Assembly: GCA_964479285.1 (NCBI GenBank)
Contig: CAYZLU010000001.1
Location: 1-40,168, forward strand
Reading direction: 5' to 3'
Length of the DNA stretch: 40,168 bases
Origin: an uncultured Planctomycetales bacterium
GTDB taxonomy: Bacteria; Omnitrophota; Gorgyraeia; Zapsychrales; Fredricksoniimonadaceae
Numbering within the stretch: position 1 is the first letter of the stretch; each line of letters begins with the position of its first letter. This document shows, in pieces, positions 2,539 to 6,859 of the stretch. A program made the position numbers and the translations under genes. The notes beneath the pieces were generated by a model, which saw nothing but the letters and a program-made list of their open reading frames with translations, was not told the DNA's origin and did not search any database.

Positions 2539-2885
2539 TATTTCTTTCCTTTTATTTTACAAAGATCTTCCAGAATATCAAATATAGTGTCTAGTTGTTC
2601 TTGAATGTGTCTAAATTTTTTAGAATAAGGAGGATGGTATTTTTTTCCATGTATAAGAATTCTTTCAACTTTTTCCTTTTCATTTTTTTCTGCATAATCT
2701 TGACTAACCTTTGCAGAATAATTTAAGTTACCACCAAACTTTTTTATTTCTCGTGAAATATTCGATTGATCCCGATTTAAATGAAGGGCTATTTGAGTAT
2801 GAGTAACATTTCGTTTTTTTAATTGACTCTCTATATATTGTCTTTCTTCATATGTAATTTTCTTATAAACCATTACTATTACCAT
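2538..2885 (-). CDS. Helix-turn-helix DNA-binding protein (IS30-type HTH_38-like).
   Basis: ITYEERQYIESQLKKRNVTHTQIALHLNRDQSNISREIKKF matches the N-terminal HTH pattern of IS30-family proteins. There is no transposase catalytic domain. Confidence 0.6.
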   Translation of the reverse strand: MVIVMVYKKITYEERQYIESQLKKRNVTHTQIALHLNRDQSNISREIKKFGGNLNYSAKVSQDYAEKNEKEKVERILIHGKKYHPPYSKKFRHIQEQLDTIFDILEDLCKIKGKK

Positions 2886-2902
2886 TTATTCAATTTAACT
2901 TT

Positions 2903-3322
2903 TTACTCACCAAAATAAACATTATCATATCCATACGTTATTTTTTCAAGCAAATCTTTATCGGGATGTTCAGTACTTTTATTGCTAATTGGAAAGTCAT
3001 GCTTTCCTTTTGCAATCTTAGTATTAAGTGAACGATCATTGATAAACAACCTTCTCACCCTGTAATAAGTTCTAAAAAGCCATCGGTGCGAATAGGCGAT
3101 CGGATGTCTAAGTTTAAATAGAAAGCGTTGCCATCTTGTCCTGCCTATTAACATAAATCCCCAAGGGTCTAGAAAACGCACTTCATTCGAGAATTTGACA
3201 CCTAGCGTTGATTGATGACAAACAGGCTCCCCACCTGGAGGTCTATATATAAATTCATTTTTTCGTGCGTTTACGTAATCTTCTTTTAGATTTTTCTCAA
3301 TCATTAATTTTTCTTTATTCAT
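2903..3322 (-). CDS. Hypothetical protein (139 aa).
   Basis: ORF in the same-strand operon; no motif recognised. Confidence 0.55.
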   Translation of the reverse strand: MNKEKLMIEKNLKEDYVNARKNEFIYRPPGGEPVCHQSTLGVKFSNEVRFLDPWGFMLIGRTRWQRFLFKLRHPIAYSHRWLFRTYYRVRRLFINDRSLNTKIAKGKHDFPISNKSTEHPDKDLLEKITYGYDNVYFGE

Positions 3323-3578
3323 TTTTACTCCTATGAAAATAAGTTATTTTAATCTTATTTTCTTTATTACGTATAATCCCTTTTGTCAGCCATTCTACTT
3401 CATCAACTGTATGCCTTCCATTTCCACAGCATTCTTTATAACTTTCCAAAGTAGCTCTAAACCAGGCACCCCCACATCCTTGGCATAGAGCATTTGGACA
3501 ATACCAAATCCCTTGAGCTTCTACTCTTTTGTTTTTGATTCCACAAGAAAAGCATGTATCGGGTTTTTCTTTATTCAA
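3315..3578 (-). CDS. Zinc-ribbon hypothetical protein.
   Basis: 87 aa with CFSC..., YCPNALCQGCG. Confidence 0.55.
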   Translation of the reverse strand: MNKEKPDTCFSCGIKNKRVEAQGIWYCPNALCQGCGGAWFRATLESYKECCGNGRHTVDEVEWLTKGIIRNKENKIKITYFHRSKNE

Positions 3579-4486: not shown

Positions 4487-5317
4487 TTATAATCCCATTA
4501 AGATTTCGAACGCTTTTTTCGCTTGTTGAGGACATACTGAGTTGCCGAGTCCTCTAAGTCTGTCCACATGGAACGATACCCCATCAGAAGTTCTACAAAC
4601 TCCACTGACAGCCTTTTGCCAATGCTTTCGGGATTCAAACGGCCAATACTGTCCTGTAAATCCTCGCCGTGTTTCCCCTTCACTCTGCTCGGACTCGGCG
4701 CTCGTATCGGCTTCGATCCTTGGCTTGCGGTTGGGGTTGCTAAGAGTACAGAGGAATGTAGACAAGGCGTATTCCTTCTCCGTTCGCTCGGCGTATCTGA
4801 TTGCGCTCTCGATTGCGGGGTGGGCCAATAAGAACCAACGATCTCTTTTGTGGAGCGCTCCAACGGACGCAGCGGATATAGTACACCATCGACAATCATA
4901 CCCCATCGTGGTAAATTCATTAACAACTTGAAGTCCCCCTCTTGTTGAGATTGCCGGGACGTTTTCAAGGAATATGAACTTGGGCTTGATTTCTTTGGCC
5001 AAGCGAATGATCTCGAAAAACAGTCCGCTGCGCTCTCCTTCCAAGCCTTTTCCAAGTCCTGCAATGCTGATATCCTGGCATGGAAAGCCACCGTAGATAA
5101 TATCGATGCTATTAATAGGAAATGACCCTGAGTCTTTTCCGAGTGTTTGCACGTCATCCCAAATTGGAGAGGTTTGTAATTCCCCACATGCCATTCTAGA
5201 CAACAATACTCCTTGACAATAAGGGTCGATTTCGCAATAGGCGATGGGTCTAACGTAATCTCTAAGGGCGAGACTGATTCCACCGATTCCGCTAAATAAA
5301 TCCAAGCCATTTAACAT
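4487..5317 (-). CDS. dcm: DNA (cytosine-5) methyltransferase (frame A).
   Basis: Motifs in order: DLFSGIGG (I), GGFPCQDIS (IV), ERSGLFFE, FLENVP (VI), GALHKRDRWF (VIII-like), VDRLRGLGNSVCPQ (X). The start lies 6 nt after the terL stop. Confidence 0.85.
   Translation of the reverse strand: MLNGLDLFSGIGGISLALRDYVRPIAYCEIDPYCQGVLLSRMACGELQTSPIWDDVQTLGKDSGSFPINSIDIIYGGFPCQDISIAGLGKGLEGERSGLFFEIIRLAKEIKPKFIFLENVPAISTRGGLQVVNEFTTMGYDCRWCTISAASVGALHKRDRWFLLAHPAIESAIRYAERTEKEYALSTFLCTLSNPNRKPRIEADTSAESEQSEGETRRGFTGQYWPFESRKHWQKAVSGVCRTSDGVSFHVDRLRGLGNSVCPQQAKKAFEILMGL
4498..5310 (-). CDS. Alternative-frame ORF (frame B, +1 relative to dcm), co-extensive with the methyltransferase gene. It is a possible overprinted gene.
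   Basis: 270 codons without a stop. The ATG is 7 nt downstream of the dcm ATG. The product contains LPRWGMIVDGVLYPL, YWPTP, LLATPTA and LNPE..VEFVELLMGYRSMWTDLE. I recall these motifs from standalone phage/ICE proteins and from the variable/motif-IX region of some phage C5-MTases. Confidence 0.45.
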   Translation of the reverse strand: MAWIYLAESVESVSPLEITLDPSPIAKSTLIVKEYCCLEWHVGNYKPLQFGMTCKHSEKTQGHFLLIASILSTVAFHARISALQDLEKAWKESAADCFSRSFAWPKKSSPSSYSLKTSRQSQQEGDFKLLMNLPRWGMIVDGVLYPLRPLERSTKEIVGSYWPTPQSRAQSDTPSERRRNTPCLHSSVLLATPTASQGSKPIRAPSPSRVKGKHGEDLQDSIGRLNPESIGKRLSVEFVELLMGYRSMWTDLEDSATQYVLNKRKKRSKS

Positions 5318-5323
5318 CCGTTC

Positions 5324-6859
5324 TCAATATCCAAAATATTTATTTATAGCCTTCATATCATTTTCTGAGCTTGCATTGTCTTTTCTTTCCAATCCCTTCA
5401 ATCCCACCGCAAGGTAACGAAAGGCATCTGCCGCATGACTTGCGTCATCATGTTGAGGTGTGTTTTTATAACATCCTAGTCTATCATTCCACTCTTTTTT
5501 GTACGCTTCTAAATGTTTAAACCCCTTTGTCGTCTTTTCTTCATCAAAGACGCAACGGGACAACATTGATCGTACAGTCTGTATCCCTTCAAGTTTATCA
5601 CACTCTTTGATGTCCAATATAACGATCCGACCGTCAAGGAGCGGGATAACGTGGTCAATATACTGCGTCTTAACGCCAGTGTCTCTTTTTCTCGCGTCAT
5701 GAGGGAAGATATGTCGTCCAAAACGGTACTTTTGTTTATTAAGCCAATCACAATAATGTGCCGCCCCTTCATCAAGATTTTCATAAAAGTTTATAATATT
5801 TACTTGGCCGCCTCTTCCCACTTGAAAGCACCATATTGCAGTAAAATCGTCCAGGCCGATGTCCCATGCGCTATGAACCGGCAATGCGTCGTCGTAAGGA
5901 ACCCGACAAACATTTCCATTAGCACTAAGTTTAGCCAATTGAGTACCGTAATAAAGACCTTCATTAGCACTTTCGAATGCCTCCTTTGGTGTCGATGGAT
6001 ACTCTTGCTTCATAGCATCACCGAGCATCCGATGCTTCATTTCATACCATCTTCTCTGCTCTTCGTCAATCTTTCTTTGACGCTCAAGCTCGATTCGATC
6101 GAAATATTCGTTTGTCTCTTTACTCACTATGATTTCTCCGCTTGATTCGCGATATTCTGGCTCGTCGAACCAAGGGAAGAAGAAAAATCGCATTTGCATT
6201 GGGGACAGTCTGAAATCAGGCATGGATTCGCTTTTCGACAATAACGCTTCAGCCTGTTTGCTAAACTCGTAGAAGTACCCTTCCCTTCCCTCAGCGGTGG
6301 ATTCGATAGCAATAATTTGATCAGCGGAGACAGTGTTAAGACTTCCAGTAACAATTTCCTTTGCAACATCGGGCGACTTTGCACATATCTTTCCAAATTC
6401 AGAAACCAACAGCCGTTGATACGTTCCACTCCTGAATCCTGTACTAACTCGATAACTAGATCCATTTGCGAAAACCAATTCACCAGCTCGATCGTTAGTG
6501 GCACTGTTGAAAGCTCTCGTCCATTTGGGCATTCTGTCATATGCGTATTTTACCTTTTGTTTAAAAATTTGCTCTGCATCCTCTTTTCTATGGGCTATTA
6601 TACCCGAAGCAGTATTATTATACCAAAAGCACTCATCCAAGAAGTTTATTACGAAATATGTAGTCACTCCTAGTTGACGCGCCTTAAGCACGAGCATTTG
6701 GTGCCACTCTCTATGATATAATTCCTTTTGTGCCCAATTAAGATTGAATAGAACCTCTTCACCAGATTTGTTTGTGATGTAATAAAGATGGGTGAGTCGC
6801 CAAAGCTTGTCATTAAGCTGCTCTTGGGTAGGGATGTAATCATCATGTTGAATAATCAT
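5324..6859 (-). CDS. terL: Terminase large subunit.
   Basis: 511 aa. It has an N-terminal ATPase-like segment (VLKARQLGVTTY, later LLVSEFG). The C-terminal nuclease-like part contains SAWDIGLDDFTAIW and HAADAFRY. Confidence 0.85.
   Translation of the reverse strand: MIIQHDDYIPTQEQLNDKLWRLTHLYYITNKSGEEVLFNLNWAQKELYHREWHQMLVLKARQLGVTTYFVINFLDECFWYNNTASGIIAHRKEDAEQIFKQKVKYAYDRMPKWTRAFNSATNDRAGELVFANGSSYRVSTGFRSGTYQRLLVSEFGKICAKSPDVAKEIVTGSLNTVSADQIIAIESTAEGREGYFYEFSKQAEALLSKSESMPDFRLSPMQMRFFFFPWFDEPEYRESSGEIIVSKETNEYFDRIELERQRKIDEEQRRWYEMKHRMLGDAMKQEYPSTPKEAFESANEGLYYGTQLAKLSANGNVCRVPYDDALPVHSAWDIGLDDFTAIWCFQVGRGGQVNIINFYENLDEGAAHYCDWLNKQKYRFGRHIFPHDARKRDTGVKTQYIDHVIPLLDGRIVILDIKECDKLEGIQTVRSMLSRCVFDEEKTTKGFKHLEAYKKEWNDRLGCYKNTPQHDDASHAADAFRYLAVGLKGLERKDNASSENDMKAINKYFGY

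Follow-up and report, generated by a model that had tools for sequence, protein, structure and literature searches.

Can a single stretch of DNA encode, in two reading frames of the same strand and over nearly the same nucleotides, two proteins that work together as one enzyme? This question is raised by a methyltransferase locus on contig CAYZLU010000001.1 (assembly GCA_964479285.1) from an uncultured bacterium, of which we have analysed positions 1 to 40,168, hereafter the window. Two open reading frames (ORFs), frame A and frame B, lie on the minus strand of this locus. As the initial annotation pointed out and the ORF listing bears out, both frames are open and nearly co-extensive, the ATG of B being located 7 nucleotides (nt) downstream of that of A (ATGttaaATGg), and the stop codon of B 11 nt before that of A. 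We consider it likely that two proteins are produced from this one stretch of DNA, and that together they probably constitute one DNA cytosine-5 methyltransferase (C5-MTase), to which A would contribute the catalytic part, and B the target recognition domain (TRD) and the conserved motif IX.

Openness and selection in the two frames

The initial annotation had argued from (61/64)^270, or about 2e-6, that frame B was not a chance ORF; the conclusion stands, but the figure is too small for one locus. When the synonymous codons of A were permuted within the gene, which preserves the protein as well as the biased codon usage of the gene, frame B received 6.5 stops on average (Poisson P0 ~1.5e-3), and it was open in none of 1000 shuffles. 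In the reverse test, in which the codons of B were shuffled, 11.9 stops were expected in A, and again 0/1000 shuffles were open. Since the odds at a single locus are only roughly 1e-3, the argument against chance rests on the replication of the architecture across loci. Homologous genes had also been proposed as the place to see whether B stays open and whether synonymous variation in A is suppressed. As an unbiased sample, we retrieved 80 loci with frame A alone, at 33-61% identity. In 79 of them, the +1 frame was open for 80% or more of the length of A, and the median open lengths of A, B and the third frame were 283, 268 and 31 codons, respectively. After the removal of near-duplicates, 65 of 67 loci kept the +1 frame open, both exceptions being ORF-anchoring artefacts. 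With 6-16 stops expected, both frames are nevertheless open in all but one of the 80, and synonymous shuffles gave 0/1000 open in 21 of the 22 loci so analysed. When B was the query, IMG/VR yielded 34 loci; the two frames were co-extensive in about 24 of them, and the third frame was open over 1-54 codons only. A single-chain relative with a guanine plus cytosine (GC) content of 60% (L122), which served as the negative control, contained many stops in both alternative frames. We conclude that the double open frame is not due to chance. An additional argument had been made from composition, and it holds in part: the GC content is indeed raised (47% in the gene and 39% in the whole window, with a peak of 53-55% at 4575-4874 and flanks of 27-38%), and its relevance is only partial.

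Where selection acts was determined with a codon-phase map, for which an alignment of 22 loci was threaded on the codons of B. Over columns 1-160, the wobble position of A is the most variable nucleotide, and the identity of A is higher than that of B. Over columns 161-245, it is the third position of B, i.e. the first of A, that varies most, and the identity is 0.44 in B versus 0.24 in A. Over columns 246-270, where motif X is encoded, frame A is dominant again. Within the first of these segments, columns 81-150 show high conservation of both frames, and the wobble position of A is unusually conserved there. The conservation that each frame would show merely as a side effect of the other was estimated with a conditional null, in which codons were redrawn for one protein and the other frame was re-translated. 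For columns 71-160, the observed identity of B was 0.56 against an expectation of 0.31, and that of A was 0.72 against 0.28; in the variable region of B, the expectation was 0.17 for the observed 0.44. By the same comparison, the linker of A (0.24 observed, 0.19 expected) is essentially unconstrained, and the first 70 residues of B (0.32 observed, 0.23 expected) are weakly constrained; the null presumes saturated synonymous sites, and the small excess in the A linker gauges that bias. Selection hence acts on A over motifs I-VIII and X, on B over its middle part (the WPTP/TPTA region and the LNP..VE.LMGYP..WT block), and on both frames over motifs IV-VIII of A.

Catalytic parts in frame A and putative recognition parts in frame B

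Profile searches, which had been recommended for the two translations separately, gave different answers. Frame A matches PF00145 with an E value of 2.5e-37, with residues 3-169 only (profile positions 2-164 of 324), and TIGR00675 matches its residues 5-181. The C5-MTase motifs LFSGIGG, GGFPCQDIS, FLENVP, HKRDRWFLLA and LGNSVCP are invariant in a 40-sequence alignment of A. The A profile aligns to M.HhaI, the sequence of which was checked against the PDB, over residues 14-183 only. The AlphaFold2 (AF2) model of A is confident at residues 1-170 and 250-276, with a predicted local distance difference test score (pLDDT) below 50 at residues 171-225, and its best Foldseek matches in the PDB were M.HaeIII (E=6.5e-13) and M.HhaI (E=4.5e-12), over ~171 columns each, of ~325 residues. 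Neither a TRD nor a motif IX was found between motifs VIII and X of A by PF00145, the M.HhaI profile, AF2 or the phase map. The small domain made of TRD and motif IX serves DNA recognition, and is needed by all characterised C5-MTases (PMC3404938). As A matches M.HaeIII and M.HhaI over motifs I-VIII only and continues in a linker predicted to be disordered, it lacks this domain. From its sequence profiles and its model, we propose that A is the catalytic subunit of a C5-MTase.

Frame B was matched by phrog_1008, annotated as 'DNA methyltransferase', with an E value of 1.4e-14 over residues 71-200 (profile positions 40-172 of 329); positions 294-318 of the same profile match motif X of A. A word-indexed search found 264 homologues of B at E<=1e-3, none of them with a Pfam domain, and the full-length matches are 40-65% identical among the 120 matches listed. 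An exhaustive search returned 22,281 cluster representatives with E<=1e-3, of which 9,400 also passed E<=1e-10. The alignment of B consists of an ISALQxxEKAW..FSRS.AWPKKSSP..LPRWGMxVDGVLYPL block, the WPTP/TPTA region and a (K)L.p..vE.LMGYP..WT block, and the W..SGxMxNGxLY part of the first block also occurs in the beta proteins of the Corndog gp6 and Geodirt type. The leader ahead of these blocks is absent from some relatives, in which B starts near motif IV. By hhalign, the B profile has one match only to M.HhaI, namely motif IX at residues 272-291 (RKLHPRECARVMGYPDSYKV; E=0.012, 20 columns), and in the single-chain relatives that belong to PF00145, the segment to which it aligns is prLxaxFaEWMMGwPxGWVT, immediately ahead of motif X (probability 85%, E=6.6e-6). 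Judged by these alignments, the C-terminal block of B is homologous to the pre-motif-X block of the single-chain relatives, and B is proposed to be the subunit that carries the TRD and motif IX. The view of the initial annotation that this is genuine dual coding, with the WPTP and LNPxFVEWLMG elements of B belonging to the variable and motif IX region of phage Dcm enzymes, agrees with the thousands of homologues, the openness of B in relatives, its conservation beyond side effects, and the alignment of its block to motif IX. The coordinates given at the time for nucleotides that encode motifs in both frames are likewise correct (Table 1).

The relatives of this locus show several layouts. In the single-chain layout (P0385 and similar proteins, which are PF00145 members of 301-328 amino acids (aa) and homologues of Corndog gp6), motifs I-VIII are followed by LLPTPxxxD repeats, RLNAAFSEWMMGWPDGWVT and GNGVVPQQ, the repeats being located between motifs VIII and IX and all parts lying in one frame; the N-terminal halves of these proteins align to M.HhaI with E=8e-24. 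In the split layout, Corndog gp7 carries motifs I-VIII, and gp6 the B-like block, the TRD, and motifs IX and X, the two genes overlapping by 209 nt in the +1 frame. In the nested layout, gp57 of Paenibacillus phage Jacopo occupies the +1 frame within gp56, each of the two bearing the annotation methyltransferase; IMG/VR likewise contains loci (L019-L021, L029 and L030) whose B ORFs are nested, comprise 156-171 codons and start near motif IV. The window and most relatives have the co-extensive layout. The motifs of B recur in a +1 frame in each of the top three phage matches to A; this frame spans the whole gene in Acinetobacter phage ABMM1 and Salmonella phage S9-5, whereas in Synechococcus phage S-H1 it covers the last 201 of 271 codons. 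With the C-terminal half of B as tblastn query, those three genes were matched in the frame at +1 to the annotated coding sequence. When the phage collection was searched by megablast with this region of the window, no near relative was found.

It is also observed that only A is annotated, under the name 'DNA methyltransferase', in Mycobacterium phage Che9d (gp80; L121, record 45002-45760), ABMM1 (gp60; L001) and S9-5 (L002), each of which has an unannotated ORF of ~225-300 codons with the same motifs in the B frame. In four E. coli prophages (H102-H105), the annotated frame is again A only, under this name, and ~500 mycobacteriophage records match frame A.

Table 1. Features of the dual-frame locus and its surroundings in the window
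Feature	Position	Strand	Remarks
Frame A ORF	4487..5317	-	276 aa, ATG start
Frame B ORF	4498..5310	-	270 aa, ATG start, +1 relative to A
Shared initiation region	5308..5335	-	terminase TGA 5326..5324, 6 nt, A ATG 5317..5315, 4 nt, B ATG 5310..5308
A motif I, AdoMet (S-adenosylmethionine)-binding loop, LDLFSGIGGISLA	5267..5305	-	invariant F8, G10, G12 and G13 in 40 sequences
A motif IV (GGFPCQDIS), catalytic Cys	5066..5092	-	same nucleotides encode AFHARISA, onset of conserved B
A motif VI (FIFLENVP)	4955..4978	-	from alignment
A motif VIII, GALHKRDRWFLLA	4823..4861	-	last codons share nucleotides with B GSYWPTP
A linker, residues 166-249	4571..4822	-	open, essentially unconstrained, predicted disordered, length variable among relatives
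A motif X and C-terminal helices, HVDRLRGLGNSVCPQQAKKAFEILMGL	4490..4570	-	pLDDT 85-92; frame A dominant in phase map
B leader, residues 1-70	5101..5310	-	open, weakly conserved, predicted disordered, pLDDT ~40
B conserved block, residues 76-147, FHARISALQDLEKAW..FSRSFAWPKKSSP..YSLKT...LPRWGMIVDGVLYPL	4870..5085	-	overprinted on A motifs IV-VIII
LPRWGMIVDGVLYPL of B	4870..4914	-	
B variable region, residues 161-231 (YWPTP ... LLATPTA)	4618..4830	-	indel-rich among relatives; proposed TRD
YWPTP of B	4816..4830	-	
B motif IX-like block, KRLSVEFVELLMGYRSMWTDLE	4552..4617	-	hhalign; AF2 pLDDT up to 83-93 (means of 10-residue blocks) at residues 200-250
VEFVELLMGYRSMWTDLE of B	4552..4605	-	
B basic tail (KRKKRSKS)	4498..4525	-	shares nucleotides with A C-terminal helix AKKAFEILMG
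Upstream gene, presumably terminase large subunit	5324..6859	-	our own reading of the sequence
Antisense open frame, 129 aa	4542..4931	+	
Antisense open frame, 87 aa	4568..4831	+	

Proposed translation of the two chains and competing explanations

The start codons of the two frames are close together in most relatives. The first ATG of B lies at +4 nt relative to the start of A in 38 loci, at -5 nt in 14 and at +7 nt in four; in 62 of the 70 distinct start regions, it is no farther away than 17 nt. ATGaATGg and ATGttaaATGg are the typical start pairs, and in many loci a purine run similar to a Shine-Dalgarno sequence lies ahead of them. In the window, the upstream gene, which we take to be that of the terminase large subunit, ends 6 nt before the ATG of A and 13 nt before that of B, and this spacing suggests termination-reinitiation coupling into either frame. 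The simplest reading is that one initiation region feeds two frames, and that the two resulting chains assemble. Under this mechanism, ribosomes at the one initiation region just after the terminase stop would choose either ATG, and both chains would be made from one mRNA and would assemble as a heterodimer, as in M.EcoHK31I. A would supply the large catalytic domain (AdoMet binding and catalysis, motifs I-VIII) and the motif X helix, joined to motif VIII by a floppy linker without sequence constraint, and B would supply the conserved block, the variable WPTP/TPTA recognition region and motif IX, the conserved block being probably a docking surface for A or for DNA. We thus infer that both chains are translated, that they assemble into one enzyme, and that B sets its target specificity.

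Several observations weigh against this reading. B has no Pfam match and no NCBIfam model, and the B profile gave no match to PDB sequences. The assignment of motif IX hangs on alignments of 20-25 columns, namely the two described above. AF2 of B alone has a mean pLDDT of 59, with the N-terminal 60 residues disordered and confidence in the C-terminal third only, and a Foldseek search of the PDB with this low-confidence model returned noise only. The 70-residue leader of B is barely constrained, and its openness is explained by the idea of a shared start alone. Furthermore, the relatives in which A has stops at motif IV beside an intact B could mean that the role of B is independent of A, and mass spectrometry of Corndog revealed neither of the proteins gp6 and gp7 (PMC4351075). 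Searches with related proteins and fragments were also negative: Corndog gp6 had no match among PDB sequences, and Pfam searches with B, with C-terminal pieces and with an A->B->A chimera assembled by hand gave a signal neither for motif IX nor for motif X. The last result is uninformative, because Pfam does not score such short blocks; the chimera scored 129.1 bits and A alone 129.5 bits.

B might instead be a real protein unrelated to the methyltransferase, e.g. with an anti-defence or regulatory function, and A alone a minimal or non-specific methyltransferase. This would fit the lack of a recognised domain in B, the predicted disorder of most of B when modelled alone, and the variants with A stops at motif IV or in the linker that keep B intact. 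We nevertheless hold it to be improbable, since the C-terminal block of B is homologous to the block before motif X in single-chain PF00145 enzymes and its sole alignment to M.HhaI is motif IX, the WPTP/TPTA repeats of B occupy the TRD position in the single-chain enzymes, A is without the TRD and motif IX that all characterised C5-MTases need (PMC3404938), and Corndog-type genes have a B-like region in frame with motif X.

Still less credit can be given to a single polypeptide made by two programmed frameshifts, the first of which (+1) would lead from A into B behind motif VIII and the second (-1) from B back into A in the interval between IX and X. Such shifts would recreate the order of motifs I-VIII, TRD, IX and X and make the full-length ORFs incidental. 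The initial annotation had raised such an A->B->A chimera, and as a description of where selection switches it is accurate: the selection map runs exactly from A to B and back to A, the single-chain relatives show that domain order in one frame, and for Corndog gp7/gp6, the study of the Cluster O mycobacteriophages weighed frameshifting, ribosome hopping and an intron (PMC4351075). As a mechanism of translation, however, the chimera fares poorly. It has no need for open B codons 1-160 or for an open A linker, both of which are open in 79/80 relatives, nor for the conserved ATG that B has of its own beside that of A. At the first junction, RWFLLAH of A and GSYWPTP of B are encoded by the same nucleotides, and at the second, VDRLRALGN of A and WTDLEPWA of B; because these conserved elements share nucleotides at both junctions, one chain cannot contain both. 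A conserved slippery heptamer or shifty stop is absent from both junctions, in line with the earlier remark that no canonical heptamer could be seen, and the spacing between motifs IX and X in the chimera would be ~11 residues, compared with 19-21 in M.HhaI and the single-chain relatives.

Finally, that B is open by chance, or that compensating indels from assembly or sequencing have created it within an ordinary methyltransferase gene of one frame, has next to no likelihood and is effectively refuted by the shuffles, the conditional nulls and the A-retrieved loci: the gene has a higher GC content than its surroundings and hence fewer stops, but no shuffle was open, frame B is conserved far beyond the side-effect expectation, the architecture recurs in 79 of 80 independently assembled relatives as well as in isolate phage genomes from five host phyla, and the identical A protein is present on 8 contigs.

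Interrupted relatives, known systems and implications

In some relatives, frame A is damaged or interrupted. In-frame stops inside motif IV of A were observed in L007/L046 (locus nt ~2985), L008 (~3171), L027 (~3237), L031/L053 (~2985), L035-L037 (~2985) and L052 (~1528), in forms such as TTC CCG TGA ACA TGC, TTC CCA TGA CCA TGC, TTC CCG TAA TGA CCA TGT and similar ones. These variants result from an insertion of 6 or 9 nt, by which B gains 2-3 residues (RE, HD, RD, LE or RND) and stays open; downstream of the stops, 200 or more codons of A are open, and the motifs are conserved. Genome-wide reassignment of TGA was considered and rejected, since numerous ordinary ORFs of those contigs terminate at TGA and one of the variants reads TAA TGA. 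A classic +1 slip was likewise rejected, as the stop is preceded by CCA, CCG or CCT, not CCC. The form CCN-stop-CCA occurs in three of the five distinct motif IV stop sequences, and one may speculate that a short hop of peptidyl-tRNA(Pro) by +6 or +9 nt restores GGFPCQ. Other candidate explanations for the stops are a real truncation and recent decay. In L007, L031 and L035-L037, a domain of ~150 aa resembling HNH lies in frame between motifs III and IV of A (locus nt ~2450-2950), and L052 probably has such an insertion as well. The insertion is located directly upstream of the motif IV stop, and the B ORF there begins inside the HNH region; the insertion could be a homing endonuclease linked to the 6-nt insertion in motif IV. 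In two further relatives, motifs I-IV of A are replaced by an unrelated N-terminal sequence while B is intact (L030, nt 2600-3400), and a stop in the linker of A cuts off motif X while B is of full length (L088, nt 1400-2500).

Other features around the locus are of a minor nature. The position of a methyltransferase gene right behind a terminase gene is unusual. The two antisense open frames of the window (Table 1) have counterparts of 45 to 190 codons among the relatives, in a frame that shifts between loci, and they were rejected as real genes for their widely varying length and position; they follow from the avoidance of stops in both sense frames, as the initial annotation had supposed, and are regarded as by-products. 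The basic tail of B is probably a side effect of the conservation of A, and not a selected feature of B.

As described in published accounts (Lee, Kam & Shaw 1995, after PMC2836561 and PMC3404938), M.EcoHK31I is an experimentally established two-chain C5-MTase of E. coli, in which alpha carries motifs I-VIII and X as well as the TRD. The reading frame of beta, the chain with motif IX, differs from that of alpha and falls entirely within the alpha gene, and the enzyme needs both chains to be active. Compared by this description, the alpha chain and A both carry motifs I-VIII together with motif X, and in both systems the second chain is encoded in another frame of the same DNA. The beta chain is short and nested and the TRD lies in alpha, whereas here B is co-extensive (270 of 276 codons) with a start 7 nt away, and the variable TRD-like region and an additional conserved block are found in B, opposite an unconstrained linker in A. 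In M.AquI, another experimentally established C5-MTase of two polypeptides, alpha carries motifs I-VIII and beta motifs IX-X (PMC3404938). M.AquI and Corndog gp7/gp6 resemble the window locus in that a C5-MTase is divided behind motif VIII, its two ORFs overlapping in different frames. Their beta chain comprises the TRD, IX and X, with a partial overlap (209 nt in Corndog), whereas in the window motif X is back in frame A and the overlap covers essentially the whole gene. Corndog gp6 is a detectable homologue of the conserved block, the TRD-like repeats and the motif IX block of B. The 2015 paper on the Cluster O mycobacteriophages described the gp7/gp6 overlap, mentioned similar arrangements in other phages, and left undecided whether it yields two products or involves a frameshift, a hop or an intron (PMC4351075). 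In Jacopo, a phage of Paenibacillus larvae, gp56 is of the A type (motifs I-VIII, a long linker and X) with a B-type +1 ORF, gp57, inside it, and both frames have already been called; in contrast to the window, where the frames are co-extensive, B has 234 codons against 351 and is nested. The publication of the Paenibacillus phage genomes lists the two cytosine methyltransferase genes, with their nesting and function uncommented (PMC6070908). In the open-access literature on overlapping or dual-coding phage cytosine methyltransferases, we came across no account of a co-extensive family with tandem starts, or of how far it extends.

The overprinted genes of PhiX174 and the Rz/Rz1 genes of phage lambda are also cases in which one stretch of DNA encodes two proteins in different frames, and Rz and Rz1 act in one process. 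The present overlap, on the other hand, extends over ~270 codons in a 40-kb double-stranded DNA phage, and neither of its frames is simply new, as the TRD and motif IX are ancestral methyltransferase parts that have been moved to the other frame. The overprinting is reciprocal: its de novo parts are the N-terminal half of B, which lies over the motifs of A, and the linker of A, which lies over the TRD of B. The principle is that of M.EcoHK31I; what differs is the TRD in B, the near-complete overlap, the tandem starts and the very wide distribution in phages. A bolder proposal, which we regard as doubtful in its entirety, is that this is the largest deeply conserved same-strand dual-coding family in double-stranded DNA phages, with an obligate heterodimer, a reciprocal overprint of ~270 codons and tandem starts behind one ribosome-binding site, in which the recognition cassette of B could diversify over the free linker of A and so change the methylation specificity, with the catalytic subunit left untouched, and in a sub-lineage of which the motif IV stop (CCN-TGA-CCA-TGC) is bypassed by a short hop that gives a low ratio of A to B.

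In annotation, one of the two frames is called, usually A, and more than 22,000 cluster representatives of the B type are without a Pfam or NCBIfam model. Recognition of the pair would correct many annotations of phage methyltransferases, including those in many SEA-PHAGES genomes, would explain the orphan 'WPTP / LNPxFVEWLMG' proteins, and offers a testable answer to the question raised in 2015 about Corndog gp6/gp7. The family also provides a natural system of a very long and ancient same-strand overlap, in which the selection on each frame is legible from codon-phase patterns. With regard to phage epigenetics and anti-restriction, specificity is predicted to reside in B, so that methylation motifs would not be inferable from the annotated A protein.

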